Positions 3,361 through 34,340 of a DNA stretch of 64,000 bases are shown here, in pieces (positions within the stretch are counted from its first letter, which is position 1; each line of letters opens with the position of its first letter). The position numbers and the translations under genes were made by a program. The DNA comes from a virus. Below the pieces are notes generated by a model. The model was not told the DNA's origin, searched no databases, and saw only the letters and a program-made list of their open reading frames with translations. Location: positions 1 through 64,000 of IMG/VR virus record IMGVR_UViG_3300042922_000542. One strand, 5' to 3'.

Positions 3361-3376
3361 TATATCATACCTTTCT

Positions 3377-5290
3377 TTATTTAATTTTATAACCAAATAA
3401 ATCATTATCTTTAAAACCTATTACATCAGGTCTATTCATAAATTGTAAACGAAGCGTTGCTAAATTATAATCTCGCTTATCAATAGCATCCCTTATTAAA
3501 GTAGGATCGCTTAAAGGCATTTTCATTTGAATAAATGGTACGCCTACATATGGTCTAGCACTATGAGCATATTCAGTATTAAACTGAGTTTCATATACAG
3601 TTTTATTAGATTTACGAGATAAACTATCCCACGAACCTGGTAAACCACTACAATTATTAAATTCTAATAATGATATCGGTGACAAATCTCGTTTAAATGA
3701 ATATTTAAATCTGATATCTAATCTAGGTGCATCACCAGGACTATTATTAGAATTCCAACTTAACGCATTTGCTCCGGTATTAACAGGGAACACACCATAA
3801 TATTTTGTCCAATATAATAAGTCTGATCCATCTTCACCAGTTTTAAGTACATATACTGATGCTGCATAATCCAATGTTTTTGTATACACGTGACTATTAT
3901 TTATATTAGGGGTATCCATACTATTTTCATTTAATGAATATGACGGAGACCACGCTCCTCTAGATACATTATCAATGTATATTACCCACAATTTCAATAA
4001 ATTAATTATAGAATAATACTTATCATCTGTAAAACTAACGCTGAATTCTCCAGCAGATCTGCCAGTATACGTATTTCCATACTGCATGCTATATTCATTC
4101 CATGATTTTCCTGCAGTATTAGTACCAATCGTTTCATCTTCAATTTGAAAAGATGATGCCGCATTAGACAATAACATATTAAAATTATTACTATCATTGC
4201 AATGACGTTTATCTACTAATAATTTAAATAGTGCAGGATTTCGCATCCACAACATTGCAGATTCTGTATGATTTAAACATTGAGCTGCTGCATTTAAACC
4301 TTGTCCTCGTCTTTCGAGAATATTCAAATCGGGACGTGTAAAAAATACGTGTGTAAATGATTTATTATGAGCTAAATTCGGATCAGGTGTTTTAAATCTA
4401 TTATATAAAAAATATCTCATATATTTTGCAATAGCGTTATCACCATGTACCGGAATACCCAATGCTGCTCTAAGTTCAGTCATACTCTCTTCCAATGTTC
4501 TTGTTTTTTTATTAGCACCCAATGATGTAGGACCAGTTTCTATTCTATAGTCATATGATGCAGGTATATAATCTTTATAATTTGCCGAACTGATTTTATT
4601 TGGAAAAGCTTGATTATTTTGTATAACATTTTTATTATCATTTAACATTTCAGCTAATTTTGATTTATCTGATGCAGCTGTAGGAGTTTCTAATCGCATT
4701 ATACTATTATCTAATTTAATTTTGGTAGCGCCACTATCAGATAAATTTACATCATATTGTATTTTTTTAAACTTAACTGGAGCAATTTTATTATCCATTG
4801 ATGTTTCAGCGATCAATGTATTTAATGCCAACTCATTTTTTAATGAACCAGTTTGATGAATTTGGGTAGTCGTAGTCTGTTTTGTGTTAGCAGGCGGTTT
4901 CCAAGACAAGGCATGTTCGGTAGTTGTAAATAATCCTTGGACTTGAGGCGCCTTTGATAATACAGTAACAGCTTCTTTCTCTACCTTAGATTTACCTATA
5001 GCTGGTATAGGTTTTGGTTCTGTAATAATAACCATTTCAGGATGAATTATATTGTTAGCGATACCATCGGGCTCTACTTGCCAAACAACAACATTTTTAC
5101 CACCACTCTCAGTATATACGCGAACCTTAGTCTTTCCATAGAAATTTGATACAGATTCGACTGTTCCCCATAGTGCGCCACCTTCAATGTATTTAGACAC
5201 ATGTGTTGCAATTTTGTTATTTGTTATATCTTTGGCTCCAATTTTAATTTGTACTTTGTCACCGGGATGTATATCTTTTACATTCGCCAT
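3377..5290 (-). CDS. hypothetical protein (637 aa), possibly virion module
   Basis: Long ORF with AAAGGAGG upstream of the ATG at 5290. No motif recognised. Confidence 0.75.
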   Translation of the reverse strand: MANVKDIHPGDKVQIKIGAKDITNNKIATHVSKYIEGGALWGTVESVSNFYGKTKVRVYTESGGKNVVVWQVEPDGIANNIIHPEMVIITEPKPIPAIGKSKVEKEAVTVLSKAPQVQGLFTTTEHALSWKPPANTKQTTTTQIHQTGSLKNELALNTLIAETSMDNKIAPVKFKKIQYDVNLSDSGATKIKLDNSIMRLETPTAASDKSKLAEMLNDNKNVIQNNQAFPNKISSANYKDYIPASYDYRIETGPTSLGANKKTRTLEESMTELRAALGIPVHGDNAIAKYMRYFLYNRFKTPDPNLAHNKSFTHVFFTRPDLNILERRGQGLNAAAQCLNHTESAMLWMRNPALFKLLVDKRHCNDSNNFNMLLSNAASSFQIEDETIGTNTAGKSWNEYSMQYGNTYTGRSAGEFSVSFTDDKYYSIINLLKLWVIYIDNVSRGAWSPSYSLNENSMDTPNINNSHVYTKTLDYAASVYVLKTGEDGSDLLYWTKYYGVFPVNTGANALSWNSNNSPGDAPRLDIRFKYSFKRDLSPISLLEFNNCSGLPGSWDSLSRKSNKTVYETQFNTEYAHSARPYVGVPFIQMKMPLSDPTLIRDAIDKRDYNLATLRLQFMNRPDVIGFKDNDLFGYKIK

Positions 5291-11546: not shown

Positions 11547-11561
11547 CATATACTAAAAATA

Positions 11562-11585
11562 ATGGGGGACAATCAAGTCCCCCAT
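11562..11585. terminator. bidirectional terminator hairpin between convergent genes
   Basis: atggggga-caatcaag-tcccccat with T-rich tracts on both sides. Confidence 0.75.
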
Positions 11586-11607
11586 TATTATTTATTTTTT
11601 TATTTTA

Positions 11608-11901
11608 TTAGCAATTGCATCCACGACTAGTACAAGAGCAGCCATCATTATCTTCAACTAATATCATTCCGCAGTTATTGACAAACGAAATATACAAATC
11701 CGATTTTTTATCAGATGTAGACGAAACGTAGCCCTTACTTAATTCTTGTCTTAATACACTTAGACGAGTTGTTATATCAACCCATTCATTCGTGAATGAT
11801 TCATGCACGCCAACAAATTGTTCAACCGCATTAGCACGCCCAATCAATTCTAGTGGCAATACATTTGTATCAATTAATTCATATTGAACTTTCTTAACCA
11901 T
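11608..11901 (-). CDS. small protein with C-terminal Cys motif (CSCTSRGCNC); candidate radical-SAM substrate
   Basis: RBS CAGGAG placed immediately after the stop of the upstream Cys-rich gene. It is the last gene of the operon before the terminator. Four of its five Cys lie in the last 10 residues. Confidence 0.7.
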   Translation of the reverse strand: MVKKVQYELIDTNVLPLELIGRANAVEQFVGVHESFTNEWVDITTRLSVLRQELSKGYVSSTSDKKSDLYISFVNNCGMILVEDNDGCSCTSRGCNC

Positions 11902-11915
11902 TATATTTCTCCTGA

Positions 11916-13181
11916 TTAATAATTTATTTTTCTGAATGATCTCTGTTGATCTTCTCGATTCATAGGTTGAGGATATCCAATTGTAGTCGGTTCTGTATGA
12001 TATGATTTCTCTGAAATATCTGCAGATGTATTAGATTGTAAATACGTTGTACAATGTCCTACGCATGTACTAATGCATTTATCAGTACAATTATTAAAAC
12101 AATCTCTATTACAACTTGAGTCACACCACCAACCACATAAATTGGCACAATTAGAACAAGTACCCTGACATTTAACTGAGCATAAACCAATACACATACC
12201 CACACATGAGTAGCAAAGATCACTACAACCACCACATGAGTCAGTGCAATTATCATAACAATGATTCACACATTTATTTACGCATGTTTGAGTACAATAA
12301 ATATTACATGCTTGGCCACATTGAACCGAACATTGACTTGAACAAGGTCCACAATTAAATCCACAATTGTTAGCGCATGTTCTACATAATGATGAACATG
12401 CATTTGAACATAGTGCTGTACATGATTTACCAACACAATTAACACTACATGTATTTACACATGCACCCTTACTTGCACCGCATGATGAACGACAAGCTTC
12501 TAGATGACAACTCGTGTTACAATCCTTTTGACATAGACCGGTACACGAACCACCGCAATTTCCACATCCCGTTGATCCAGGCGGTTTAGCATCCTCTTGG
12601 GATGATGCATGACCATCACATGTTGTACATATACCAGTGTTTGCATTACAATCACTTGCACAATTTGTACAACCGCCACCACCAGAACTAGTAGTTGCAC
12701 ATTCTTCTCTACACGATGTTCCACATCCTGTGCATGCACCACTACAACCACTACAACCATCTCCAGTACTAGTGCCGCTACATCCTCCACCACAGGTACC
12801 ACCGCATCCACCTTCACATCCATTTCCACAACTAGAGCTACACATAGAACAGTCACCTGAACAACTTCCAGGGCAACTAGTATCTCCAGGATCTGGTGCA
12901 GCAGATGACGATCCTTTACAAGTACCAGTACAACCACTACACCCTCCACTGCATCCATTAGAACATGATCCGGACCCAGCATTACAAGTATCTCTACACA
13001 TACCTTTACATGTTGTACCACAACTATCAGAACTACAACCTGCACCGCATCTAGATTGACAAGATGTTCCACAACTACCACATCCAGTACCAATACTCTT
13101 TGTTGCTGTGGTACTACTAGAACTACTAGCAGCATCTTTTGCTTGTTTTATAGCACCTATTATTCCTGACAATAAACTCAT
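11916..13181 (-). CDS. hyper-cysteine-rich protein (421 aa, 78 Cys by hand count, mostly Cx3C spacing)
   Basis: RBS AAGGTGA. A Cys-free 33-aa N-terminus is followed by three Cys/Gly/Ser/Thr blocks separated by short Pro/Asp linkers, then a Cys-free 44-aa tail. The frame is chosen by RBS and operon context among several open frames. Confidence 0.8.
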   Translation of the reverse strand: MSLLSGIIGAIKQAKDAASSSSSTTATKSIGTGCGSCGTSCQSRCGAGCSSDSCGTTCKGMCRDTCNAGSGSCSNGCSGGCSGCTGTCKGSSSAAPDPGDTSCPGSCSGDCSMCSSSCGNGCEGGCGGTCGGGCSGTSTGDGCSGCSGACTGCGTSCREECATTSSGGGGCTNCASDCNANTGICTTCDGHASSQEDAKPPGSTGCGNCGGSCTGLCQKDCNTSCHLEACRSSCGASKGACVNTCSVNCVGKSCTALCSNACSSLCRTCANNCGFNCGPCSSQCSVQCGQACNIYCTQTCVNKCVNHCYDNCTDSCGGCSDLCYSCVGMCIGLCSVKCQGTCSNCANLCGWWCDSSCNRDCFNNCTDKCISTCVGHCTTYLQSNTSADISEKSYHTEPTTIGYPQPMNREDQQRSFRKINY

Positions 13182-13214: not shown

Positions 13215-14852
13215 TCAAACACGTATACCCGTATTTGCATTACAATCTATTTTACATGTAGCTGTACAAGCACTAGTACAACCAAAACACGTTCCAGTAC
13301 ATGTTAAATTACATGATCCAGTACAACCATCACAAGCTGTACACCCATTTGAACATCCAGTGTCACAGTTACCACAATTATTACTGCAGGTTACAGTACA
13401 ATTATCGTAGCAACTATTTTTACAAGTACTGAAACATGACAATGTACATACACCCTCACATACACCAGCACAATCACCTGTACAATCTGCAACACAACCC
13501 TCTTTACACGATTGACCCTTTCCAGATTTATAACCACCATTATGTTCATTATCATTACTAATGCATCCACCAAAACAACTAGTTGAACAATATGTATTAC
13601 AAGTTGTAAAACATAATGCTGAGCATACTGAATCCCAACATGTCGTTTTTTTATTAGGATAATATTGACATGAGAATGAACATCCACTGCATGTATACGT
13701 TGATGATATTACTGTATTTTGGATAACTGCACTTGAGGCTGTCTGTCCACAATTATTACTACATCCGCTAGGGTTACCTGTAGATTTAATAGAAACTGTA
13801 TCAGCTCCTGCATTCAAACAAGATTTACCACCAATATCACTACATTTGGTTTTACATCCAGAATAACATTGTGTCGTACATCCTGTACATATATTACCAC
13901 AATCTGAATGACATGCATTACCGCATCTGCTCCAACATGTGGATGCACAACCTTCGGAACATTGATTATCACATGTTAGATAACATAAACCTGTACATGC
14001 TACATTACACAATCCTTTAGATCCTGTTGAAATTTGTCTTGATGGATATTCTGATCCTCTATTAGGGTTTCTAGGATTAGCTCCAAATCTAGATGCTGAA
14101 CTAATGCCACCTGTCACTTGATCAACTACTGTTTCATTTCGTTGATCGTCCTGAGTAATTATATGACGATGAACAATCGGTGAAACATATGGGTTTATCG
14201 GATGATGATCAATAACACCAGGACTTGCTCCATAATCATCATAGAAGTTAGTCTCATCAGGACCACTATGACCTGGTAATATTTCTTCACCATCATATTC
14301 TCCAGATGGATATTCTACTGGAACTGTTACGGTTTTACCATTATTTGCAATAGGGTATAAACCATATCCTGTATACATACCATTCGTAACTCCATTATTA
14401 GGGTCATATTTCTGAAAAGATTCAGTAACGGGCACATTTAAAATATCATTTTCAGCAGCTTCTATTTTTGTTGATATATCTTCAGGATCTCTAAACACTA
14501 AACCCGCAACCTCATCTCTGCCATAGAATAAATCTATGTCATGGATCTTAGATAAACCAACTAAATAGTTTTGTATTTCATCAACATCAATTCTAGCACT
14601 AGATGAATTAATATCTCCAACAGGATTATCTCCTTGCGCAGGATATTTGATATTTCTTGTAGGTTCTATGGATCCGGTAGATGGAGTATTAATGGTATAT
14701 GTTTTATCTGTGACTTCACTAGTCCTATCAGCTCCGACTGCAGGTGTAGTTAACGGATCCCACCATTTAAATGTTCCACGACGTTTAATCTCAGCATTTA
14801 ATTTATCCTTAATTGCATCAAATTCTGTTTTTGAATATAATTTATCATTCAC
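13215..14852 (-). CDS. two-part protein: Cys-free N-terminal domain (about 280 aa) plus C-terminal Cx3C lattice (52 Cys)
   Basis: No ATG near the 5' end. The track starts at GTG 14870. I prefer GTG 14852 because GAGGTG lies 6 nt upstream. The first Cys is residue 288 of the track ORF (nt 14009). The protein ends in ...CKIDCNANTGIRV. Confidence 0.75.
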   Translation of the reverse strand: MNDKLYSKTEFDAIKDKLNAEIKRRGTFKWWDPLTTPAVGADRTSEVTDKTYTINTPSTGSIEPTRNIKYPAQGDNPVGDINSSSARIDVDEIQNYLVGLSKIHDIDLFYGRDEVAGLVFRDPEDISTKIEAAENDILNVPVTESFQKYDPNNGVTNGMYTGYGLYPIANNGKTVTVPVEYPSGEYDGEEILPGHSGPDETNFYDDYGASPGVIDHHPINPYVSPIVHRHIITQDDQRNETVVDQVTGGISSASRFGANPRNPNRGSEYPSRQISTGSKGLCNVACTGLCYLTCDNQCSEGCASTCWSRCGNACHSDCGNICTGCTTQCYSGCKTKCSDIGGKSCLNAGADTVSIKSTGNPSGCSNNCGQTASSAVIQNTVISSTYTCSGCSFSCQYYPNKKTTCWDSVCSALCFTTCNTYCSTSCFGGCISNDNEHNGGYKSGKGQSCKEGCVADCTGDCAGVCEGVCTLSCFSTCKNSCYDNCTVTCSNNCGNCDTGCSNGCTACDGCTGSCNLTCTGTCFGCTSACTATCKIDCNANTGIRV

Positions 14853-14915
14853 ACTTATCACCTCAATCACATTTATATTTGCATTTATTTAATTTTAAAG
14901 AGTCTGCAAATTCAA

Positions 14916-16727
14916 TTATTGGTTTTCCAATACGGTAATTGTAGAACGAGCCACTATCATTTTTAATAATTTTAACTCTTCCTCATTAATAACCATCAAT
15001 GCCCATTCGTCGGGTAATTGTAATTTTCTTACTCCCAAATTATAATGTGGTTTCTTTATAGCTAACAGGTTCCAGTAATATACATTGGCTAAGTGTTCGG
15101 CAAACATTTGTAAACATATGAATTGAGTTCTCTTATTTGCAGTCCCATATGTTTGATGGCATAACCCACTACACCAAGAGCAAGAAGATCCAATTGGACA
15201 ATCATAACAAATATCATTTGATTGTGAACGCCTTGTTACACTATCCATCATCGACAATATTTCGGATCCTTCTTCTCTACCAACCATACCAGTATCAATA
15301 TGACCTATACATTGCTCTTTGCATTTCGTTCCAAGTGATGATGGCATATATCTAATACATGGATAAAATTTACCCTTGTAGTCTAGTGCCAACATTGATC
15401 CTAATCCTCCACACCAATTTTGATCCGAAGTGTGTTTAAGCCTAGTCTCAGGTTTATCATCGAATATAGCAATATATAGATGCTCTAAATTATTTTCCAG
15501 CAAGTAGTTCGCTAGTTTCTTTAATTGTTCATATTCTAGTGTAGCAGTTTCTTGTGTCCAAACATCTTCAAACACGCAGTTTAAATTGATAGATTCCATA
15601 TCCTCATTGATGAAATTAATAACTGAATCATATAAATATTTCATATTTTCTGGAGCCAATGTCATCTTTGAATTTCTTTCGGTAGTATGATATTTATTAA
15701 AATGATTTAATGCAAGAATATCGATATCATACGAGCCTTCACCATTAGGCTGGATTCTACATGAGTCTTGTAATTCTTTATTACCATCTATTGATATATT
15801 AAATGAAACATGTTTAGCATATTTTTTAAAGAAATCTTGCACGTCTCTATCAAAATATAACATCCCATTGGTACATATAGAAATTCTATGCATTGCAAAC
15901 CATGGATGGTTTAATTCATAGCATCTTTCTAAAAAATATTCATAAATCTTTTTGGTAAGATTAATTTCTAACAATGGGTCCCCACCAATAAACTCAATGA
16001 TTATTGCAGGTGAATTGTGTTTATTAATATAACTATATTCATCATTTAAAAGTTTATCGATAAATGCTTTAGCTGTTGGAAATTTCATTCTTCCACATGT
16101 TTTATTTATCTGATAACAATATGTGCAGGATAAATTACAATCCTCAGTTGTTTGGAATGTAAAGTTGTGTACATATATTGATGTATCCTTATTAGTAGGA
16201 TCTACTGTATCTTGAGTAAACAATTCAGGGTAAACTTTTTGAATGGCATCACTATAACTTTCAACATTAAATCTAAAAAATTGATTTGGCATTATATTAA
16301 ATACTTCATCATCCTTTATTTTATCATCAATATAATTTAAACAATTTTCATCATCAGATAATATTATTACATCAAATCCAATCTCTTGATTTTTGAAATC
16401 AATATGTTTAACAATTACCTCAGATATATTATCAATATTATATGAGGAAACTCCAGATGATTCGATTATATCATTTAAGAATACTGCAACTATTTCACAG
16501 AATCCATAACGTACCTCGTCCAAGATACTAGTAAGTTTTTCATGTAATTCCGGGATTTTATCTAGATCCTTATTATGGTCATACATATAATTTATTCTAA
16601 ATGATATCGCATCAGCTTCATATCGTAACCTGGTTGTTTTATGATACCCGAATGTCTGCATTTCAAATATATCGAATTGCTGATTGTATAATTTAATTTT
16701 TTTATATAATGCATTTGTCTCTTTCAT
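14916..16727 (-). CDS. radical SAM / SPASM-domain enzyme with about 190-aa N-terminal extension (603 aa)
   Basis: RBS AGGAGG. CNLSCTYC (CxxxCxxC) at nt 16116-16139. C-terminal GKFYPC ... CYDCPIGSSCSWCSGLC auxiliary-cluster pattern typical of SPASM proteins. Confidence 0.85.
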   Translation of the reverse strand: MKETNALYKKIKLYNQQFDIFEMQTFGYHKTTRLRYEADAISFRINYMYDHNKDLDKIPELHEKLTSILDEVRYGFCEIVAVFLNDIIESSGVSSYNIDNISEVIVKHIDFKNQEIGFDVIILSDDENCLNYIDDKIKDDEVFNIMPNQFFRFNVESYSDAIQKVYPELFTQDTVDPTNKDTSIYVHNFTFQTTEDCNLSCTYCYQINKTCGRMKFPTAKAFIDKLLNDEYSYINKHNSPAIIIEFIGGDPLLEINLTKKIYEYFLERCYELNHPWFAMHRISICTNGMLYFDRDVQDFFKKYAKHVSFNISIDGNKELQDSCRIQPNGEGSYDIDILALNHFNKYHTTERNSKMTLAPENMKYLYDSVINFINEDMESINLNCVFEDVWTQETATLEYEQLKKLANYLLENNLEHLYIAIFDDKPETRLKHTSDQNWCGGLGSMLALDYKGKFYPCIRYMPSSLGTKCKEQCIGHIDTGMVGREEGSEILSMMDSVTRRSQSNDICYDCPIGSSCSWCSGLCHQTYGTANKRTQFICLQMFAEHLANVYYWNLLAIKKPHYNLGVRKLQLPDEWALMVINEEELKLLKMIVARSTITVLENQ

Positions 16728-16797
16728 TATAATACCTCCTGTTATATATTAACTTTATTTAGCTTAATTCTTAGTAATATTAAAATCATATAAAGAT

Positions 16798-16821
16798 AAT
16801 GGATGGGCAATCCCATCCATT
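16798..16821 (-). terminator. hairpin (terminator or attenuator) inside the radical-SAM cluster
   Basis: aatggatggg-caat-cccatccatt, between the stop at 16826 and the start at 16727. Confidence 0.55.
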
Positions 16822-16825
16822 ATCA

Positions 16826-17662
16826 CTATCTATTATTTGATATGTATTCTTGATATATCATGGATAGTTCTTGATCAACTTTATTCCGCTCAGTTAATTT
16901 TGTATCATCATATTTTTGCTCGGATAACAATTGACCATTACAGTCCTTCGTTGAAATTACATAATGTGAATTGACATTAACGGTATTAATATTCTCAATA
17001 GTGATTTCATTATCGATAAAATAATTATCATAGATTAATTGTTTCATAATACTCATATAATGATCTCTAATAATATTGAAATCATCACTGACAAATCCAA
17101 ATTCAATTCGTTTAAATCCAATAGAAACTAAATTATTGATACTTTCTTTAAGATATCCAATATTAGATTTATTTAAAGTACAATGTGCAATTAGGTTAAT
17201 CCCACTCTTTATGAATTTGCCTATATTGTCTATTATATAATCATATGATCCTTTCCCGTTTTTAAGTATACGATTAATATTGTGCGATAATTTATTACCA
17301 TCTATTGAAATACATAATAAAATATTATATTTTTTAATGGTATTAATAATTTCATCTGAATACATCATACCGTTAGTTGAAGTTACAAATTTAAATTTAT
17401 ATTCAGAATAATGATCAATAATATATTTACATATTTGATTTAGTCGATCTATAAATAAAAATGGTTCACCGCCTAATAATTCAACAGTAATCGACCTACC
17501 CGTAATATGCAACATACTTTCATCGAATATCCGAATTATATCATCTATGGTACTATCTGATTCAATATCACTATCAAGCATATTATTATATACATAACAA
17601 TATTTACATCTCATATTGCAGAGCTTAGTAATATACATATTTATATGTCGACATTCAGACAT
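16826..17662 (-). CDS. radical SAM enzyme, short form without SPASM tail (278 aa)
   Basis: CNMRCKYC at nt 17597-17620 and a GGEP motif (LLGGEPF). The start overlaps the upstream stop as TAATG, which implies translational coupling. Confidence 0.85.
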   Translation of the reverse strand: MSECRHINMYITKLCNMRCKYCYVYNNMLDSDIESDSTIDDIIRIFDESMLHITGRSITVELLGGEPFLFIDRLNQICKYIIDHYSEYKFKFVTSTNGMMYSDEIINTIKKYNILLCISIDGNKLSHNINRILKNGKGSYDYIIDNIGKFIKSGINLIAHCTLNKSNIGYLKESINNLVSIGFKRIEFGFVSDDFNIIRDHYMSIMKQLIYDNYFIDNEITIENINTVNVNSHYVISTKDCNGQLLSEQKYDDTKLTERNKVDQELSMIYQEYISNNR

Positions 17663-18783
17663 TAATCATCATCCTTCAAATTAAATTTAATACGAATATT
17701 GTCATATCCAATTTTATTAATAAACATTTCAGATGCATCATAAAAAAGTTTTATTGCTTTACATACACCATCTATGGGTTCACATATATTTTTCTTACCA
17801 TGTTCCATTATTGCTGCAAAACATTGACCATAGCATACGCCATATAATTCACAATTTCTACATTTTGGAGATATATCATGTGAAAAGTTTTTATATATAT
17901 TTGCAATATTATTGGTTTCATCAATATCAGTAAATATGGAACCAAGTTTAGTATGTTCAAAGCGGTTATTGAAAAAACGTTGACAAGGATATATGTCACC
18001 ATTGGGTGCTAATGCAATTGTAGATGAACCAGCTGAACAGAAGTAGGTTCTACCGTGGGCTTTACATCTATATGGTAATAGTAAGCCAGTATCAAGAAAT
18101 GGAGTTTCCGAGTAAAATTTATCAACTAGAAATTCTACATATTCAATATAAAAATTCTTTAATCTCTCCAATTGCACATCATTCCAATCGCAATCTCGGA
18201 CAATACTCAAATTAATACGCCTGAATCCATCTTTGATGTAATCTTTAATACCATCTAGGACATAATCAATATTATCAGGTGATATCATAAATTTAAATAT
18301 TTTAGAGCTGATTGGTCTGTTATTAGCTTCACAATATAGTGTAGCACCTTTTATACAGTCATCATAGCTACCTTTACCATTTGGATATACCCGACATCTA
18401 TCATGGCTGCTTCTCCCACCATCTAGGGACATACTAATCCCTATTTCATTATTCTTGAGATATTCAACCTTCTCTTTATTTAATAATGTCAAATTACTTG
18501 TAGTCATAATTGCAATATTTACATCTGGTCGCATTTTTTTTACTTCATTGATATTATCAACTATTTTACAGAATTTTTCCCATTCCATTATAGCCTCTCC
18601 ACCGAATAAATCAATATGAAGAGATTTTATATCATTTTTAACGATAATATTATTAAGAAATACGGGCAAATATTCAATAACATCATCCGATATTGTTAAC
18701 CCGTTTGTTTTATTAACATAGCAATATTTACAACGCAAATTGCATTTCTCAGTTACAATAATAATGATTGTACTAATTTTCAT
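17662..18783 (-). CDS. radical SAM / SPASM-domain enzyme (373 aa)
   Basis: CNLRCKYC at nt 18721-18744. The C-terminus reads CSAGSSTIALAPNGDIYPC ... CRNCELYGVCYGQC, the canonical Cx2Cx5Cx3C SPASM pattern. Confidence 0.9.
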   Translation of the reverse strand: MKISTIIIIVTEKCNLRCKYCYVNKTNGLTISDDVIEYLPVFLNNIIVKNDIKSLHIDLFGGEAIMEWEKFCKIVDNINEVKKMRPDVNIAIMTTSNLTLLNKEKVEYLKNNEIGISMSLDGGRSSHDRCRVYPNGKGSYDDCIKGATLYCEANNRPISSKIFKFMISPDNIDYVLDGIKDYIKDGFRRINLSIVRDCDWNDVQLERLKNFYIEYVEFLVDKFYSETPFLDTGLLLPYRCKAHGRTYFCSAGSSTIALAPNGDIYPCQRFFNNRFEHTKLGSIFTDIDETNNIANIYKNFSHDISPKCRNCELYGVCYGQCFAAIMEHGKKNICEPIDGVCKAIKLFYDASEMFINKIGYDNIRIKFNLKDDD

Positions 18784-18794
18784 TTTTTATACCT

Positions 18795-19184
18795 CTAATT
18801 ATCACCTATTACCAAACCACATTGATCACAATCACATGCACATCTATCACAATTGCAAGAACATCTATCGCAATCACAATCACAATTATCGCAATTACAT
18901 TGACATGTATTATTGTATATTGTCGTAGCAGCTATACTGGCATTATTAAAAACTGTAGCAAGTATATATTTGCCTTGTTCAAAATTTATCAATGAACTAA
19001 GATCTGCCTTGGGATATACCGCTGAATGACCATTTGCAGCAACTAAATTATTTTTAATTGATGTAAACAAAGTGCTAGTTATTAAATTACCTTTCACGGC
19101 TCTTTCTGTATTTGCAGGTTGACCAAGTCGTATTCGAGTTTGATCAACCGATGCAGCAACAACATTTGCATCATCCGCTAACAT
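18795..19184 (-). CDS. protein with C-terminal alternating Cys tail CQCNCDNCDCDCDRCSCNCDRCACDCDQC; candidate radical-SAM substrate
   Basis: The track ORF begins at GTG 19217. I prefer ATG 19184 (AAAGG 7 nt upstream). There are 13 Cys within 27 residues near the C-terminus. The stop lies 9 nt before the RBS of the next radical-SAM gene. Confidence 0.75.
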   Translation of the reverse strand: MLADDANVVAASVDQTRIRLGQPANTERAVKGNLITSTLFTSIKNNLVAANGHSAVYPKADLSSLINFEQGKYILATVFNNASIAATTIYNNTCQCNCDNCDCDCDRCSCNCDRCACDCDQCGLVIGDN

Positions 19185-19194
19185 TTTCTGACCT

Positions 19195-19518
19195 TTAACT
19201 ATTGCCAATGTTATCACCCACTTTTACAATAAAATCAATAGACTCATATAAAATATCACTGATTGAGAAGTGATATATATTCTTTACAATATTACTTATA
19301 GATTTAACGATGGTACCATTTACCAATACCTGAACTGATTTTACTGGTTTATCCCTAAAATATTGATTTAAAACTGTACCTGTTGTTGGAACAACATCAT
19401 TTATGATACGTAATTGAGTTAATTCACTCCCAACATTCATAAAAAAATTTATCCCCGCAGTTTTATCAATTATAACATCTTCATCAATATATTCAATTTT
19501 TATTTTTACACCTTCCAT
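19195..19518 (-). CDS. hypothetical small protein (107 aa) within the radical-SAM cluster
   Basis: RBS AGGAGGG. No Cys motif. Function unknown. Confidence 0.7.
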   Translation of the reverse strand: MEGVKIKIEYIDEDVIIDKTAGINFFMNVGSELTQLRIINDVVPTTGTVLNQYFRDKPVKSVQVLVNGTIVKSISNIVKNIYHFSISDILYESIDFIVKVGDNIGNS

Positions 19519-19549
19519 AATTTAACCCTCCTGTTTATAATAATTAATC

Positions 19550-19951
19550 TTATTCATAATTAAAATGGAGTTCGGAATTAGATAAATATATTCGATCTAT
19601 TATTATATCATCCATAATATTTATACCATATGAGATACTCTTTACGCCTAATATTTCATCACATATTTCATCTCCATTAAACATTTGAACATTGATTACT
19701 TTTCGATCCATCAATGCTTGACGAATTATATCAAATTTTTCATGAAAGTCGTTAACTGTGACATTTCTAATGATTAATGCATTTGATATCATTTTGCTTA
19801 AACTATTTGCCACTGTGAGACTATCATCTCGGTATCGTACGGCCGATACTACCGGGGATTGAGGTAGGGATGTTGGATCTATATTAATATTAGGCACCAC
19901 ATCTAATGTCATCGTCACCATTGGTTCGATTATTATTTTTACACGTGTCAT
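19550..19951 (-). CDS. hypothetical small protein (about 133 aa) within the radical-SAM cluster
   Basis: The track start is 19972. Met8 at 19951 has AAAGGGG about 10 nt upstream. It overlaps the 3' end of the upstream radical-SAM gene by about 62 nt. Confidence 0.6.
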   Translation of the reverse strand: MTRVKIIIEPMVTMTLDVVPNINIDPTSLPQSPVVSAVRYRDDSLTVANSLSKMISNALIIRNVTVNDFHEKFDIIRQALMDRKVINVQMFNGDEICDEILGVKSISYGINIMDDIIIDRIYLSNSELHFNYE

Positions 19952-21224
19952 TGCATGAACACCCCTTTTCATTTATCATACGAGAAACTTTTTCTGTTAT
20001 TAATAATTCATGTAATTCTAATAAATGTTGTAGCGTTATTATTTGACCTTCCGTAAAATTATCAGTTAGAAGTCTACCCATTTCTTGCAAAACTGTAATT
20101 GAGACTTCGTGATCTCTATGAATTTTACCAAATAGTCGTTCATATACATAAATCGATAATTCCATTTCAACCTCTAATAATTTACAATACTTAGGAAAAC
20201 CATATGCGATATTTCCATTTTCTATATAATTAATAGCCATACAGCTCTTGCAGTTATAATTCTTACATTCAGAACATGCCTTGTATCCAGTCATATATTT
20301 TTTATACATCTCTTCATATGGTGCACATTTTAATGTATTTATACCATTAAATACATCACCAATTATAGTATCTGGGTCATTCATGAATGCATGGCATGGA
20401 TATATATAACCATCTGGAGCTACAGTGCAAAATGATACACCCGCACCGCATGTTTTATCGGCATGTCGCTCTTTATATACCATTGATGAAAATTGTTTAT
20501 AATTCCCTCCACTATTTTCACAATCCTCAATGATTGCATTGGCAATATGGGTATATTGCTCTCTAAATATAACATAATCATTTTCATCCCAATTCTCTTC
20601 ATGAAGAGGCATAAACCATATCTTATCAAATCTTAAGATATTTTTAAAGAAGATGTATGACTCATGTGCATATGGTAATGTTGCTTTGGTTATAACACTA
20701 TGCACTGATAATTTATTAGATGGAATGTCTAATTTATCAAATAATGCTCTAAGTTTTTTTATCGTCTCTATTATATTATGAGATGAACCATTACCCGCAT
20801 GATCAATTCTTTGCAGATCATTAATCCTAGGAATTGAATCAAATGATAATTGAATTGAAAAACTTTCAGGATTATTTACCCACCAATTGGTTAGAAATTG
20901 TTCGTATTCATTATTGTATAATACACCATTTGTTATCAATTCACTATTATATTTCAAACCATGTTTTTTACATTGATCCATAGCATAATTGAATATGTGG
21001 TTCATAGTATTTATATTGAGTGTAGGCTCCCCTCCAAAATATGACACACTAATACTTGTTTTATTATTAACTAAAGCATCATGGATAAGTAAATCAATTG
21101 TTTTTTCACCAATCTCATTACTCATAAATTTACCCTTTGATGAATTATTTTTTTCAAAACAATATTTACAATTAAGATTACATGTGTCTGTTAATAGTAT
21201 CGATGCACTCGTAAATGATGACAT
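19890..21224 (-). CDS. radical SAM / SPASM-like enzyme (444 aa)
   Basis: RBS AGGAGG. CNLNCKYC at nt 21159-21182. CGAGVSFCTVAPDGYIYPC ... CSECKNYNCKSC, plus a C-terminal helical extension ending in GCSCNDTC. Confidence 0.85.
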   Translation of the reverse strand: MSSFTSASILLTDTCNLNCKYCFEKNNSSKGKFMSNEIGEKTIDLLIHDALVNNKTSISVSYFGGEPTLNINTMNHIFNYAMDQCKKHGLKYNSELITNGVLYNNEYEQFLTNWWVNNPESFSIQLSFDSIPRINDLQRIDHAGNGSSHNIIETIKKLRALFDKLDIPSNKLSVHSVITKATLPYAHESYIFFKNILRFDKIWFMPLHEENWDENDYVIFREQYTHIANAIIEDCENSGGNYKQFSSMVYKERHADKTCGAGVSFCTVAPDGYIYPCHAFMNDPDTIIGDVFNGINTLKCAPYEEMYKKYMTGYKACSECKNYNCKSCMAINYIENGNIAYGFPKYCKLLEVEMELSIYVYERLFGKIHRDHEVSITVLQEMGRLLTDNFTEGQIITLQHLLELHELLITEKVSRMINEKGCSCNDTCKNNNRTNGDDDIRCGA

Positions 21225-21286: not shown

Positions 21287-21319
21287 AAATAGTTAATCCG
21301 ATTGTCGGATTAACTATTT
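21287..21319 (-). terminator. terminator hairpin overlapping the tail-fibre stop codon
   Basis: aaatagttaatccg-attgt-cggattaactattt, a 14-bp perfect stem. Confidence 0.65.
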
Positions 21320-23634
21320 AAAATTAATATTTTTACTCTTTGAATATCTTCCGTATCTTTATTCTCTAATGCCTTACCTATTATAGATCCTGGAATACTT
21401 GATACTGAACTTTTTCCAACGCCTTTGATAGACGATGTTGTTATTAAATCTCCAGCTTTAACCTTGCCGGTAATATATGCAGATACTCTTCCTGTTAATC
21501 CTATAGGTATATTTCTTTCTAAGTTTTCCTCAGTGGTATATCCTTCTTCCAAACCTAATAAATATCCATATGTATCAGATACTACACCAACAACCAATGT
21601 CGAATATTCACCAGTGCTTTTTCGATAATTACCAGTTTCTGGATTTAATTCTATAATATCGCCAGGTTTAAAATCTTCAGACATATCATCCTTTTTAAAT
21701 AACTCGGCAACGTCACCCCATACTGCATTCTGAACTAAAGAGCCTGTTATGGTACCGGTAACTGTTAAATTACCAGTGATCGTTCCGCCAGTGAGTGGTA
21801 AATATGGATGGGTGTGTCCATTATCAGATTTATTATTCCATGCTGCTATTTGAGCATCTGTTACAAATCTATTAGTAGTATTTTGAGTTATAATCGATGC
21901 TGGGTGGCTCGCAGGATGTTGATATGAATATGGAGCGAGTTTAGATGCCAAAGCTTGTAGTTGTTCCACCGTGGATCTACTACTAATAGAATCGATTATA
22001 GTTGCAAATGATACATCAGTTGGTGCTGCAGCAGCACTAGTCATATTTCCTTTAATAGAAAATGCAGGTATATCTGCTAATTTTATATTCGTTACAGCTT
22101 TATCTCGTATTTTTGTAGTTAATATAGATAAATCTGCAATATTATAATCAGTTACAGCATTCATTTGAATTTTATGATTATTTACACAACCCTCACCCAA
22201 TTCATCGGAAGTTATAGTAAATGCAGCAATCTTTATACCAGTAACAGCCCTATCTGCAATAGCTGGCGTTTTAACGGACCCTTGCAATATATGATAATCG
22301 CGTATTGCATTACCAGCTATCTTTGAAGCAATGATCGTCCCATCTAATAAGTGATTATACATTACATTATTATCAGCTATATGTTCGGCAAGAATTGCAC
22401 CTGCTTTAATATCAACACTGTCCGCAACGGCTTTGTATGCTAAGTTTTGTAATCCTGTAACGTGTATTTCATCAACTACCGTACTGACATCACCATTTAT
22501 CATGTATGATATAGAACCATTATTTGAACCAGATCCTATCTCTATAGATTGTATAAATCTGCCATCAGCTTCAGCTTTACTGTATACATCTGTAGCCTGT
22601 GGTAGTGCTGCCACATTTATTGATAGACCGTTAGGTGTTTCAGAAAAATAAGTTGCATCATATTTTGATATTGTGAAATCCTGTATATCCCACCAATAAT
22701 TATCACCATCATGTTTACATGCAGCAATTGCACTATAATTAGAATTTTCTTTATTTTTAATCAGATATATATGTCTTTGTAATAATGGCGATGCCATCGG
22801 TAAATCTGAAACTTTATTTACAATATCAATAAATTCAACGTAGTCAGTTAAATCAGGTCCAACTATGGTATCAACATATGATGTCACGAAGTCAACTACT
22901 GCTTTAGATGATGGATATTTAACATCATCATAGTTTGTAGTATGTGATATAGTCACTGATTTGTTAGCAATATTTTCTTTAGCTGCAAATAATGGTCCAT
23001 GTGAAAATGGATTTGTCAAATGTGTTGTATAATCATTTAATAAATTAACCATTCTGGCATCTAGTAAATCAATACTATCGTTTAATTCAGTTTGTACATT
23101 AGATAATGCATTACGTATATCACTATGTGCTGTATTGCTAGTATCATGAATACCAATAATATTATTAATTGTATTTGAAACACTACCATCCGAATCTAAT
23201 TGATCTATTGTAACGTTGTGAGGATTATTAAAATTTGCAAGATGTGCGGTTAATGATGATAGGTCTATATTAAAATTATAATTTTCTAATATCGACATTA
23301 CTGCATTTCTCTGATTATATGATAATGGCTTCTCCAAATCAGATGTATTGTTAACCCGACCGAGTCCTATATCTTCAGATGTAATATTAATATCGCCGTA
23401 CATCCCATTTACAGATGTTACTGGGAATGTAATATATCCAATACCACCTTCTTTTATTTCTTCACGTATATCATCTAGTATTTGACGTAATGTTATTTCG
23501 TTCGCATCCTGTTGGTCATATATAGCATCTAATACACTTCTAGGCCAAATTATATCGGCCATACTAGTACTCGGATTATTCTCATCATCAAATACAATTT
23601 GATCGCGGATAACTTTATTCCTAATATTATTCAT
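21310..23634 (-). CDS. tail fibre protein with probable C-terminal intramolecular-chaperone / autoproteolytic domain
   Basis: I prefer Met9 (AGGAGG 9 nt upstream). It has NNPHNVTIDQL, reiterated A(V/I)TxxKIAxxxI repeats and GGTITGNLTVTGTITG. The C-terminal segment (VVGVVSD...GLTGRVSAYITGKVKAGDLITTS) resembles the Peptidase_G2/IMC type as I remember it. Confidence 0.75.
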   Translation of the reverse strand: MNNIRNKVIRDQIVFDDENNPSTSMADIIWPRSVLDAIYDQQDANEITLRQILDDIREEIKEGGIGYITFPVTSVNGMYGDINITSEDIGLGRVNNTSDLEKPLSYNQRNAVMSILENYNFNIDLSSLTAHLANFNNPHNVTIDQLDSDGSVSNTINNIIGIHDTSNTAHSDIRNALSNVQTELNDSIDLLDARMVNLLNDYTTHLTNPFSHGPLFAAKENIANKSVTISHTTNYDDVKYPSSKAVVDFVTSYVDTIVGPDLTDYVEFIDIVNKVSDLPMASPLLQRHIYLIKNKENSNYSAIAACKHDGDNYWWDIQDFTISKYDATYFSETPNGLSINVAALPQATDVYSKAEADGRFIQSIEIGSGSNNGSISYMINGDVSTVVDEIHVTGLQNLAYKAVADSVDIKAGAILAEHIADNNVMYNHLLDGTIIASKIAGNAIRDYHILQGSVKTPAIADRAVTGIKIAAFTITSDELGEGCVNNHKIQMNAVTDYNIADLSILTTKIRDKAVTNIKLADIPAFSIKGNMTSAAAAPTDVSFATIIDSISSRSTVEQLQALASKLAPYSYQHPASHPASIITQNTTNRFVTDAQIAAWNNKSDNGHTHPYLPLTGGTITGNLTVTGTITGSLVQNAVWGDVAELFKKDDMSEDFKPGDIIELNPETGNYRKSTGEYSTLVVGVVSDTYGYLLGLEEGYTTEENLERNIPIGLTGRVSAYITGKVKAGDLITTSSIKGVGKSSVSSIPGSIIGKALENKDTEDIQRVKILILNS

Positions 23635-23776
23635 TGTTATCATCCTCCTATATGTCATAAAATATAATTATTACTCTAATTTATATTAAACAAATGGTTT
23701 GAGTGCTGATGAAGAAAAGCAAAAAAATGAATTATTTAGATTATATATTATTCTATAAATATACCATAAAATCATA

Positions 23777-24756: not shown

Positions 24757-25263
24757 TCATACCATTAATACAGAATCCATATTTTTTCTAGCGTATGTTA
24801 AAAATTTATATTGTAGACCTGTTGTAGATGTAAGAATTTCGCTAGATTTGACTAATTCGAATGTATCGTCATTAAAATTTGGCATGAATATATCGGCTTT
24901 AAATGTTGATTGTATTTGAGTGATCAATAATATGTCACACAAAGGGAGAAACTGTTTATATATCATGGAGCCTCCAATAACATATATGTCTTCATTAGAA
25001 TTCTTATATGCGTCATGGAACCCCTTAATTGAATCAAATTGTTCAATATCATCTCCAAGTAATGTGTCAGATGACGAGATAACTATATGATGCCTGTTTT
25101 TTAATGGCTTATGTAATGATTCATATGTACGTCTTCCCATCAATATTTTATGATGCTCCGTCATACATTTAAAATATCTAAGATCTTCTGGAAGACTCCA
25201 TGGCAATTTGCCATTGTTTCCAATTTCACGATTTAATCCCATTGCTCCAATCAATATAAACAT
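24757..25263 (-). CDS. folA: dihydrofolate reductase
   Basis: IGNNGKLPWSLPEDLRYFKCMT...LMGRRTYESL, a typical DHFR N-terminal signature. The gene is adjacent to thyA. Confidence 0.9.
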   Translation of the reverse strand: MFILIGAMGLNREIGNNGKLPWSLPEDLRYFKCMTEHHKILMGRRTYESLHKPLKNRHHIVISSSDTLLGDDIEQFDSIKGFHDAYKNSNEDIYVIGGSMIYKQFLPLCDILLITQIQSTFKADIFMPNFNDDTFELVKSSEILTSTTGLQYKFLTYARKNMDSVLMV

Positions 25264-25291
25264 AATTATCTCCTTATATATTTATTAATTA

Positions 25292-26080
25292 TTATACAGC
25301 AGCTTTACCTAGGTCAAGCTTGCCAGCATTTTGATAATTTTCTAAAACAAAGTCTTCAGCTTTAAATGCATAGAAATCGGTTGTATCATTTTTTATAATC
25401 AATTTTGGTGCATCATATCTAGGTCTTGTCAATTGTTCTTTTAATCCATCGATTTGATTTTCATAAATATGTGCATTATTTATTACATGAGTCAATGTGC
25501 CAACTTGTAAACCGCTCGATTGAGCTAACATGTGAACTAATACTGCAAATTGGCTAGTATTGAATGGCACACCTAATCCCCAGTCGGCACTACGTTGTAC
25601 CAACATACAATTCAGTTTACCCCATGCTACATCAAACATTGTTAAGAAACAACAAGGTGGAAGATTGCATTCAGGTAAATGTGGTATTTGCCATAAGTTT
25701 ACCATCATTCTTCTATCCTGTGGATTATTTCTTAAACTATCTAAAAGATTATCAATTTGATTGTACTTCTTAACAACAAATCCATATGATTCGCCGATTG
25801 TATTGTCTTCACGAGCCCATGAATCCCATATATGTATACCTTGGTTTTGTAATAAACTTACATCATTTGATTGCTGTTGATATATCCATAACATTTCTTT
25901 GACGGCAGTTTTAAATGCAACTGTTTTTGTAGTTAGTATAGGAAATTCCTCAGCTAAATTAAACTGCATTATTTGATGCGGCAATTTCCATGTTTTAATT
26001 CCAGTTCTGTTTTGATCAAAATATCCAGCATCAATAATGTTCTGTCCAATATTTAAATATTGATCATCGTATTTACTCAT
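25292..26080 (-). CDS. thyA: thymidylate synthase (ThyA family)
   Basis: NRTGIKTW, catalytic-loop LPPCC (normally PPCH), and QRSADWGLGVPFNTSQFAVLVHMLAQ. Confidence 0.9.
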   Translation of the reverse strand: MSKYDDQYLNIGQNIIDAGYFDQNRTGIKTWKLPHQIMQFNLAEEFPILTTKTVAFKTAVKEMLWIYQQQSNDVSLLQNQGIHIWDSWAREDNTIGESYGFVVKKYNQIDNLLDSLRNNPQDRRMMVNLWQIPHLPECNLPPCCFLTMFDVAWGKLNCMLVQRSADWGLGVPFNTSQFAVLVHMLAQSSGLQVGTLTHVINNAHIYENQIDGLKEQLTRPRYDAPKLIIKNDTTDFYAFKAEDFVLENYQNAGKLDLGKAAV

Positions 26081-33743: not shown

Positions 33744-34340
33744 ATGGAAGAAAATCAGGTTTATTCAGTTAAGGGATGCGAAACTGGACATATATCAATT
33801 CGGAATCGTGTTATGCATAATGAAAATATACACTATGTCGAAAATGTCAATGTTCATATAGAATTGTTGGAAGGCGGTATAATGCCGCAATATAAACATT
33901 GCGGTGATGCTGGAATGGATGTATATGCGATAAATGATATGATTATAAAACCAGGAGCTACAGTTAGGGTTCGTACTGGTATAAAGTTAGCAGTGCCATT
34001 TGGATATGAGGTTCAGGTTAGACCTAGAAGTGGAATATCCTTTAACACACCATTGAGGGTTGCTAATGCACCTGGCACTATAGATAATAATTTTAAAGGT
34101 GAAATAGAAGTAATTATGACTAATACATCCCCTCATAATATGGATATAACAGGCATGCCACTATTAACATTAGAATCTGAAGGCAATCAATTTGGCACAT
34201 ATAACATAAGAAAAGGTGATAGAATAGCACAAATTGTATTAGAGAAAATTCCTATAATGGAATTGATTCAGGTTGATTCAATCGCGGATATTGGTGAAGA
34301 TAGAGGCGGTGGATTTGGTTCATCTGGTATAACTGGTTAA
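33744..34340 (+). CDS. dut: trimeric dUTPase with N-terminal extension and internal insertion
   Basis: All five motifs are present: AGMDVYA, RPRSGIS, GTIDNNFKGEI, GDRIAQIVL, RGGGFGSSG. Confidence 0.9.
   Translation: MEENQVYSVKGCETGHISIRNRVMHNENIHYVENVNVHIELLEGGIMPQYKHCGDAGMDVYAINDMIIKPGATVRVRTGIKLAVPFGYEVQVRPRSGISFNTPLRVANAPGTIDNNFKGEIEVIMTNTSPHNMDITGMPLLTLESEGNQFGTYNIRKGDRIAQIVLEKIPIMELIQVDSIADIGEDRGGGFGSSGITG

Follow-up and report, generated by a model that had tools for sequence, protein, structure and literature searches.

What is a jumbo phage doing with a protein in which nearly one residue in five is cysteine, and why is its gene surrounded by radical S-adenosylmethionine (SAM) enzymes? 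The protein, which we call lat421, is encoded in IMG/VR virus record IMGVR_UViG_3300042922_000542, positions 1 to 64,000, and "the window" refers to the whole of this 64,000-nucleotide (nt) stretch. The window is AT-rich jumbo phage DNA (30% GC) that encodes a split multisubunit RNA polymerase beta subunit, virion structural proteins and tail-fiber-like genes. The familiar products of radical-SAM peptide maturases are small antibiotics and cofactors; in this phage the enzyme appears to have a full-size protein as its substrate, encoded beside a tail-fiber gene and offering 78 cysteines as targets, or 130 together with its partner protein lat551. The best overall explanation, to which we give slightly better than even credence, is that lat421 and lat551 form a rod that is stapled by thioethers through the action of a radical-SAM enzyme, is proof against reduction and is linked to the tail-fiber apparatus.

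The gene and its parts are as follows.

11916..13181, minus strand: lat421, 78 Cys in 421 amino acids (aa), forming the C-terminal half of a lattice protein split between two genes (coding-frame checks, homologues, fusions).
12618..13082, minus strand: lat421 blocks A and B, residues 34-88 and 103-188, a Gly/Ser/Thr-rich, variable lattice (gap count, alignment).
12876-12917, minus strand: lat421 linker 1, residues 89-102, between blocks A and B.
12567-12617, minus strand: lat421 linker 2, residues 189-205.
12051..12566, minus strand: lat421 block C, residues 206-377, 44 Cys, a conserved lattice domain (alignment A1, 13-sequence columns).
11919..12050, minus strand: lat421 Cys-free tail, 44 aa, with the conserved motif ...SNT[ST]...P.P.NR.E.R.SF.. 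(alignment with relatives).

The lat421 frame is truly coding and under purifying selection. Among the six frames at this locus only the lat421 open reading frame (ORF), at 11916-13181 on the minus strand, is nearly free of stops, and the plus-strand translation is riddled with them. Differences from the homologue on the syntenic contig L006 fall at codon positions 1/2/3 in the numbers 68/59/121, and 58 of 119 identical residues are encoded by differing codons. A ribosome-binding site of the AGAAGGTGA type (Shine-Dalgarno) stands 5' of the ATG.

A preliminary description, made from the letters of this DNA, had counted 78 cysteines confined to residues 34-377, and a recount gives exactly these figures (18.5% Cys, 78/421 aa; nt 12051-13082). 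The spacing was correctly read as mostly CxxxC with some CxxC, which account for 54 and 13 of the 77 Cys-to-Cys gaps; the remainder span 5-18 residues, and CC and CxC are absent (0/77). In 5000 shuffles of the Cys region the CxxxC gaps numbered 8.1 +/- 2.7 (maximum 18), and gaps of <=2, of which lat421 has none, numbered 31 +/- 3.4 (minimum 20). The lattice is thus far beyond chance, as the shuffles never approach either count. The modular layout is also as proposed, with a Cys-free N-terminus of 33 aa, blocks A, B and C containing 14, 20 and 44 Cys, two linkers whose quoted sequences were located at residues 91-102 and 192-205, and the 44-aa tail. Two other claims stand in part. The intervening residues, said to be almost only Gly, Ser, Thr, Asn, Asp, Val and Gln, are of these kinds in 74% of non-Cys positions, but "almost only" is too strong, as Ala, Lys and Leu also occur and block C has conserved hydrophobics. 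The expected 12-nt periodicity of the DNA is significant (A power above 500/500 codon shuffles, T power above 498/500) but modest, because CxxC phase slips dilute the signal.

Block C, to judge from its alignments, is under constraint as a domain and is more than low-complexity sequence. Every lat421 Cys from 258 to 377 is invariant in alignment A1, with zero indels, and the core CGGCSDLCYSCVGMCIGLCSVKC...CGWWCD (residues 316-357, nt 12111-12236) is near-invariant: column analysis finds CGGCSxLCYSCVGMCIGVCSVKC...CGWWCD, hydrophobic positions included, almost unchanged in 13 sequences. The suggestion that lat421 is not a normal globular fold is supported. Neither lat421, lat551 nor the small neighboring ORF o97 has a match in PHROGs, NCBIfam or Pfam (the library scanned lacked PF27846), and for lat421 the negative in NCBIfam, the collection of the TIGR04117 target model, holds to E<=0.01. 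A Protein Data Bank (PDB) sequence search gave no match for lat421 or for the N-terminal domain (N-domain) of lat551.

Although the preliminary description took lat421 as a stand-alone unit, overlooking a second lattice protein, a CxC-repeat ORF and the fiber gene, its homologues place it within a larger protein.

13215..14870, minus strand: lat551, 551 aa, directly upstream of lat421, with an N-domain and a 52-Cys lattice, fused to lat421 in relatives.

The N-domain of lat551 (residues 1-287, nt 14010-14870) is non-repetitive and conserved and begins with a shared helix motif; its lattice (residues 288-543, nt 13242-14009) has 52 Cys and 39 CxxxC gaps. Together lat551 and lat421 comprise 972 aa and 130 Cys. 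A profile search run exhaustively over 1.84 billion cluster representatives gave 103 matches at E<=1e-3 and 21 at E<=1e-30, and word-indexed searches were either flooded by low-complexity words or returned 1-6 relatives each. In the homologues P0008, P0007, P0010, P0011 and P0013 a single polypeptide carries the lat551 N-domain, a lat551-type lattice, a lat421-type lattice and the conserved tail. Because the top homologues are such fusions, lat421 corresponds to the C-terminal half of a protein whose gene is split in the window and in L006. An ORF of contig L001 that unites 551-like and 421-like parts by read-through was discounted because it spans a run of N, and the clean fusion P0008 was used; in-frame read-through from lat551 into lat421 was likewise rejected, as two stops intervene and the frames differ in L006. 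DNA repeats between the two genes (71-81% identity over 36-75 nt) are weak and not collinear and therefore give no clear sign of recent duplication. The peptide DCNANTGI occurs both at the lat551 C-terminus and inside lat421 (13221-13256 and 12627-12662; 81% DNA identity over 36 nt) and may be a vestige of either an ancient duplication or the point of the split.

Most relatives continue beyond the lattice tail into an extra C-terminal domain, mostly of ~135-180 aa and reaching ~250+, which is absent from the window protein and has no Pfam match. In P0001, P0003, P0007-P0012 and others this domain has a motif like GGVFDINxxTGxIxIN, which we take to be reminiscent of cadherin or Ig-like repeats. 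At the other end, the lat421 N-terminus had been called leader-like, a view that fails in that this segment is unconserved in the L006 homologue and that in relatives the whole of lat421 makes up the C-terminal half of a larger polypeptide. A candidate recognition element is instead the helix motif hydrophobic-x-x-hydrophobic-[KR]-[DN]-x-hydrophobic-N, found near the N-terminus of lat551, of the fused relatives and of L007_197 (a 197-aa lattice protein of contig L007), and also near that of precursors of the type found in phage SPN3US, of the window CxC ORF o140b and of a CxC protein of contig L020. A scan of 185,579 bacterial and archaeal genomes found no relative of the lat551 N-domain.

The candidate maturase for these proteins is encoded immediately upstream of lat551.

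14916..16727, minus strand: rSAM603, a 603-aa radical-SAM/SPASM protein and candidate maturase (TIGR04115 match, motifs).

Its CxxxCxxC motif lies at residues 197-204 (nt 16116-16139) and its SPASM cysteines at residues 439-538, both motifs being intact, following a lineage-specific N-terminal extension (residues 1-185, nt 16173-16727). The NCBIfam model TIGR04115, "radical SAM peptide maturase, CXXX-repeat target family", scores rSAM603 at 344.4 bits over model positions 3-359/359, against a curated cutoff of 350; the runner-up, PapB, reaches 148.7 bits, under half of that score. By its sequence rSAM603 is the clear closest relative (sister) of the curated CXXX-repeat-target maturases, while formally sub-threshold. 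The closest solved structure is 5wgg/5why (E 6.9e-15), presumably the thioether-forming CteB. Across all four radical-SAM enzymes of the gene block, the PapB model gives 148.7, 119.2, 183.3 and 183.3 bits (cutoff 340), the SCIFF maturase model 71.6-142 bits (cutoff 425) and the QhpD-type model TIGR03906 85-115 bits (cutoff 453); anaerobic sulfatase maturase, cyclophane-forming enzymes and epimerases are among the lower-scoring families. In CteB the open site of an auxiliary cluster binds a substrate Cys and an N-terminal domain serves recognition, PapB installs six Cys-X3-Asp thioethers in a repeat peptide, and QhpD cross-links a whole protein subunit (PMC8172795).

The same pairing of lattice and maturase occurs in bacteria, where a CXXX-repeat system is known in silico through TIGR04115 (maturase), TIGR04117 (target), TIGR04119 (CXXX_matur), TIGR04116 (CXXX_rpt_assoc) and PF27846 (target). 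The lat421 homologues P0001, P0003, P0004 and P0008 carry a precomputed Pfam tag, PF27846, marked faint or weak, whose name ends in "SAM_targ_Cxxx_rpt". Two weak homologues, P0005 and P0006, led to a cellular cassette on metagenome contigs that comprises a CXXX-repeat protein with a twin-arginine signal, members of TIGR04115 (622.7 bits), TIGR04119 (235 bits) and TIGR04116 (92.6 bits), and the twin-arginine translocation (Tat) proteins TatA and TatC. On ENA metagenome contigs L002-L004 the cassette has its own TatA/TatC, and in the target a Cys comes after the twin-arginine signal and lattices flank a ~200-aa non-repetitive domain; this target is possibly a lipoprotein. The dedicated TatA/TatC and the twin-arginine target imply export of a pre-modified, folded product. 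A sequence deposited as phage ("Bacteriophage sp.", human faeces, MT837480, our L017) has at 2219-3921 a cellular-type arrangement, a Tat-signal lattice protein of 175 aa directly upstream of a radical-SAM gene, and this DNA may be a bacterial or prophage fragment. Of the three roles that the preliminary description had offered for lat421, the match to CXXX-repeat-target maturases, close to threshold as it is, supports that of a multi-site substrate for iterative thioether formation, and so do the PF27846 tags on homologues and a pairing that is conserved in many phages as well as in bacteria.

Among phages the module keeps company with a fiber-like gene.

21310..23658, minus strand: fib782, tail-fiber-like, heading the gene block, a conserved upstream neighbor (PHROG, synteny).

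The fib782 protein matches PHROG tail-fiber families at 1.8e-13 to 4.8e-7 and, weakly and below threshold, the Pfam Peptidase_G2 IMC domain (E 4.8e-4). Homologues of fib782 occupy the equivalent position in contigs L001, L006, L007, L010 and L013. The order fiber-like gene, rSAM603-type enzyme, lattice protein or proteins is common to the window, L001, L006, L010/L011 and L013; in L007 the order differs, the C-terminus of a fiber gene being followed by L007_197 and then by the radical-SAM gene. Inteins interrupt the radical-SAM genes of relatives at two places, immediately ahead of the third CxxxCxxC cysteine and ahead of the first SPASM Cys, and also lie inside the lattice gene, where a lattice Cys is the +1 nucleophile (L006 2991-6380; P0007, P0010, P0013, P0019; L001, L010, L013). 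The window copies are intein-free. Such positions, in catalytic motifs and lattice, fit conserved, important genes.

Smaller versions of the module are present in cultured jumbo phages, namely SPN3US, SEGD1 and pEa_SNUABM_29 (Seoulvirus) and CR5 and EarlPhillipIV (Derbicusvirus). Each has two to three tandem ORFs of ~130 aa (133-134 aa for the SPN3US and CR5 precursors), consisting of a ~50-aa leader and a ~80-aa CxxxC lattice, followed by a ~295-aa gene and then by a pair of radical-SAM genes. These small ORFs match the format of a short leader and core precursor, whereas lat421 does not. A gene annotated as virion structural adjoins the lattice ORFs in 4/5 of these records; in pEa_SNUABM_29 it is hypothetical. 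Several GenBank records lack the lattice ORFs or miscall them in another frame or strand (SPN3US_0166, SEGD1_170, CR5_157, pEaSNUABM29_00267/268).

13417-13818 and 13832-14230 of L019 (JN641803): SPN3US lattice ORFs, at 143416-143817 and 143831-144229 on the minus strand of the full SPN3US record.
3131-4159 of L008 (SEGD1), 4145-4956 of L014 (CR5) and 4091-4900 of L016: further unannotated or miscalled lattice ORFs.

The first SEGD1 lattice copy is apparently frameshifted relative to that of SPN3US, and the gene numbers of the two phages are offset by 3-4. The SPN3US paper describes gp168 as a tail protein that resembles phiKZ gp131 and is located at the baseplate periphery. If that paper followed the GenBank tags, its gp168 may be SPN3US_0168, two genes upstream of the lattice genes.

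We consider it probable that rSAM603 uses the lattice protein as its substrate. Recruitment would probably occur through the N-terminal helix motif and the N-domain of lat551. By analogy with CteB, PapB and QhpD, rSAM603 would cleave SAM to a 5'-deoxyadenosyl radical, which would take a hydrogen from a carbon in a non-Cys residue close by, and an auxiliary Fe-S cluster would hold the Cys sulfur to which that carbon is then joined; the same three enzymes are the grounds for proposing thioether chemistry on the lattice, a step to which we assign an even chance. Cross-linking repeated processively along lat551 and lat421 would yield a chain of small thioether rings, that is, a stiff rod resisting proteases and reduction, and this rod would form a shaft or spacer within the tail-fiber apparatus or attached to it. 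We place it there because the module follows a fiber-like gene and most relatives add a C-terminal domain. A fiber role in the virion is suggested by this synteny and by an architecture of N-domain, repeat shaft and C-terminal domain, and we hold it tentatively, at somewhat less than even: lat421 and lat551 match no virion protein in PHROG, Pfam or PDB, and the context consists of the fiber-like neighbor and the virion-structural annotations in cultured phages. For a phage of anaerobes, a non-reducible cross-link would be a sensible feature of an extracellular structure. An anaerobic ribonucleotide reductase is encoded on the related contig L010, which is only suggestive of anaerobic hosts. 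The boldest form of the proposal, in which a tail-fiber or baseplate part of a jumbo phage is a protein-sized RiPP (a peptide made on the ribosome and modified after translation) whose cysteines, up to ~130, become a continuous ladder of thioether rings, we regard as doubtful.

The rest of the gene block contains further radical-SAM genes. On the minus strand the order is fib782, rSAM444, ORFs of 140 and 107 aa, the CxC ORF, rSAM373, rSAM278, a hairpin, rSAM603, lat551, lat421, o97 and a terminator.

16826..21224, minus strand: second sub-module, inserted relative to L006, with rSAM444, the 140- and 107-aa ORFs, o140b, rSAM373 and rSAM278.
19890-21224, minus strand: rSAM444, which aligns across SPASM-family models and has C-terminal cysteines.
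18795-19217, minus strand: o140b, 140 aa, with the CxC repeat CQCNCDNCDCDCDRCSCNCDRCACDCDQC at its C-terminal end (nt 18819-18905).
17662-18783, minus strand: rSAM373, with the SPASM core Cys motif.
16826-17662, minus strand: rSAM278, with no SPASM domain.
16795..16824, minus strand: terminator-like hairpin dividing the inserted sub-module from the conserved core of rSAM603, lat551, lat421 and o97.
11608..11901, minus strand: o97, a small operon-closing ORF with terminal CSCTSRGCNC.
11558..11589, bidirectional: terminator-like hairpin ending the minus-strand operon and the convergent plus-strand genes.

The CxxxCxxC motif is present in 4/4 of the block enzymes and the SPASM core Cys motif in rSAM603 and rSAM373. 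The enzymes rSAM444, rSAM373 and rSAM278 are all PapB-like at sub-cutoff scores (119-183 bits), and the whole set is missing from L006. With o140b lying among these three genes, this part of the block looks like a second radical-SAM/Cys-repeat subsystem. On the unrelated viral contig L020 (10399-10959) an rSAM444-like gene stands beside a 187-aa ORF that carries the shared helix motif at its N-terminus and also contains a CxC repeat. In the window a long SPASM enzyme is paired with a short one, which recalls the rSAM1/rSAM2 pair of SPN3US-like phages. An ORF of 83-104 aa occupies the o97 position in L006, L010 and L012, with no sequence similarity detected among them. Elsewhere in the window, a fifth radical-SAM gene (36018-36764, plus strand; 248 aa, short) lies 15 kb away and has no Cys-repeat ORF nearby; a nucleotide-metabolism set of dihydrofolate reductase, thymidylate synthase and dUTPase is found at 24757-26080 (minus strand) and 33744-34340 (plus strand); and a 2055-aa ORF at 57782-63949 (minus strand) matches no PHROG family at E<=1e-5. 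The 64-kb window has no tRNA genes, and megablast of the region against GenBank phages gave zero matches, that is, no near-identical relative.

Metal binding and disulfide bonding, the other two roles that the preliminary description had considered for lat421, explain less than a role as an enzyme substrate. If the lattice were a metal- or Fe-S-binding polymer, its cysteines would ligate Zn, Cu, Fe or clusters, for example down the axis of an oligomeric fiber or in an intracellular metal or sulfide sink, and the radical-SAM enzymes would have no role or would only assist cofactor insertion. Copper-storage proteins have CxxxC cysteines on one helix face, and the fiber tips of phage T4 bind iron through repeated HxH motifs. 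The 18.5% Cys content in CxxC and CxxxC spacings is typical of metal ligands, low-confidence AlphaFold helices in block C would align CxxxC cysteines on one face, and the twin-arginine signals and TatA/TatC of the cellular homologues, a route for cofactor-loaded folded proteins, keep a cofactor reading alive; yet Tat export would be expected just as much if the protein were covalently cross-linked. We nevertheless consider metal binding unlikely. The metallothionein hallmark CC/CxC is wholly absent (0/77 gaps <=2 where 31 are expected), lat421 has only 5 His, blocks A and B, rich in Gly and Ser, are unlikely to form helices, searches of PDB and Pfam turned up no similar metalloprotein, and the best-matching families of rSAM603 are all peptide-modifying maturases rather than cofactor-assembly enzymes. 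A plain disulfide-knotted extracellular fiber protein, with the adjacent radical-SAM genes of no functional meaning, would account for the even Cys count (78), the structural-gene neighborhood and the fiber-like low-complexity sequence. Phage proteins, however, fold in a reducing cytoplasm, the radical-SAM pairing is conserved across distant phage lineages and bacteria, and disulfides would be unstable in the anaerobic hosts hinted at by L010, so that we give this possibility very little weight.

Two further readings retain the enzymes and change either the chemistry or the destination of the product. The radical-SAM enzymes might act on the lattice by Cys-to-formylglycine oxidation, epimerization, C-methylation or C-C cross-linking, with no thioether ladder. 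SPASM enzymes catalyze many reactions, sulfatase maturase, cyclophane and epimerase families are among the lower matches, no fixed acceptor residue is evident, and four differently related enzymes in one block suggest more than one reaction type. We judge this decidedly unlikely for lat421, since the top families (TIGR04115, PapB, SCIFF maturase, QhpD) act on Cys-rich substrates, their characterized members make thioethers, and the sole invariant feature of the substrate is Cys and its spacing. Alternatively, the product might be a diffusible or intracellular RiPP-like effector, such as an antimicrobial released at lysis or a host-takeover or anti-defense factor, beside the fiber gene by coincidence. 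This has a low probability in our view, even though the ~130-aa SPN3US-type versions (~50-aa leader, ~80-aa core) resemble classical RiPP precursors and the maturases belong to RiPP families. Scans with Pfam, PHROG and NCBIfam found no leader peptidase or exporter in the module; the window version extends over 972 aa in two proteins with a large conserved N-domain, to which relatives add a C-terminal domain; the fiber-like neighbor is kept in six phage contigs (window, L001, L006, L007, L010/L011, L013); and virion-structural-annotated genes flank the module in 4/5 cultured-phage records. Virion proteomics gives the lattice proteins no support, which favors an effector and also counts against a stapled virion rod, but existing data were perhaps never searched for these proteins, because their genes are unannotated or miscalled in cultured phages.

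Several other observations weigh against the stapled-rod proposal. The modification of the lattice is itself inferred from sequence, and rSAM603 falls 6 bits short of the TIGR04115 cutoff. Position-specific analysis found no acceptor-type residue at a constant offset in every lattice unit, so that the topology of cross-links cannot be inferred, and the most conserved stretch, with its hydrophobic residues, might be an oligomerization or folding core. The leader-like helix motif is carried on lat551 and not on lat421. Among the 10 operon ORFs scanned with NCBIfam, TIGR04116 is absent, and the single TIGR04119 match, to the SPASM part of rSAM444, reaches 61.5 bits (cutoff 150). Export of the cellular type is missing: the scanned ORFs of the window include no Tat genes, and an RR motif is absent from the N-termini of both lat421 and lat551. 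On the 4.8-kb contig L009 the fused lattice gene has no radical-SAM gene directly upstream, the only such locus among those having upstream sequence. The fiber identity of fib782, which has no PDB match, rests on PHROG similarity and a sub-threshold Pfam match, and the SPN3US paper does not mention the lattice and radical-SAM genes. Finally, AlphaFold2 models of lat421 with 4 homologues and of the lat551 N-domain with 5 homologues were unusable (mean predicted local distance difference test scores of 31.4 and 35.6).

If the lattice is stapled by a radical-SAM enzyme, it would represent a new viral route to extracellular structures that survive reducing, protease-rich environments and, if the rod is also part of the tail-fiber or baseplate apparatus, the first case in which a viral structural protein is cross-linked post-translationally by radical-SAM chemistry. 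Nature would in addition have provided an instance of massively iterative enzymatic cross-linking that could serve protein engineering, and the result would suggest a first function for the orphan bacterial CXXX-repeat system, in which the lattice would be the rigid stalk of Tat-exported surface proteins. Direct tests are possible, as small versions of the module occur in phages that are cultured and genetically tractable (SPN3US, CR5, Erwinia phages).

Comparison with known systems places the phage module near several maturation pathways. Metallothioneins and the copper-storage (Csp) proteins share its very high Cys content, and Csp proteins have CxxxC-spaced cysteines along helices. Unlike these, lat421 has no CC/CxC, its blocks are Gly/Ser-rich, it is similar to no solved structure or Pfam family (the library again being without PF27846) and its gene is tightly linked to peptide-modifying radical-SAM genes. 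QhpD is a closer parallel, being a radical-SAM/SPASM enzyme that cross-links cysteines of a functional subunit (QhpC, the gamma subunit of quinohemoprotein amine dehydrogenase) rather than of a short peptide; QhpC, however, has few cross-links, no lattice and no phage context, and TIGR03906 scores low on the block enzymes. The ranthipeptide/SCIFF systems (PapA/PapB for freyrasin, CteA/CteB for thermocellin) likewise employ SPASM radical-SAM maturases on Cys-rich repeats, and among families PapB ranks second for rSAM603 and first for the other three block enzymes. Their known substrates have ~45 aa and 6 Cys, in contrast to 421 aa and 78 Cys in lat421, the block enzymes score far under the curated PapB and SCIFF cutoffs, and the Cys-X3-Asp rule of PapB is inapplicable to lat421 because position +4 is the next Cys.

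The nearest relative is the CXXX-repeat system itself, and full-text literature searches found no experimental or descriptive study of its radical-SAM targets or of phage Cys-repeat/radical-SAM modules. Both have a tandem Cys-X-X-X target with the unit C-[STGK]-[GNSD]-[STG], the lat421 consensus matching bacterial P0006; both have an adjoining radical-SAM/SPASM enzyme whose best-scoring family is TIGR04115 (344 bits in the phage, 623 bits in the bacterial form); and non-repetitive domains can be flanked or followed by the lattice in either system. The phage module differs in having no TIGR04116, TIGR04119, twin-arginine signal or TatAC, where the Tat traits are those of the bacterial examples seen here and may not be universal. 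Its rSAM603 is just below the cutoff and has a 185-aa N-terminal extension, and its target is split into two genes, with its own N-domain, a distinct invariant C-terminal block and linkage to a fiber gene. A radical-SAM-modified CXXX-repeat protein thus already exists as a kind in curated hidden Markov models. The phage form is distinct from it, being built at protein scale, split or fused with N- and C-terminal domains of its own, accompanied by other accessory genes, linked to a fiber gene and previously unrecognized in model jumbo phages.

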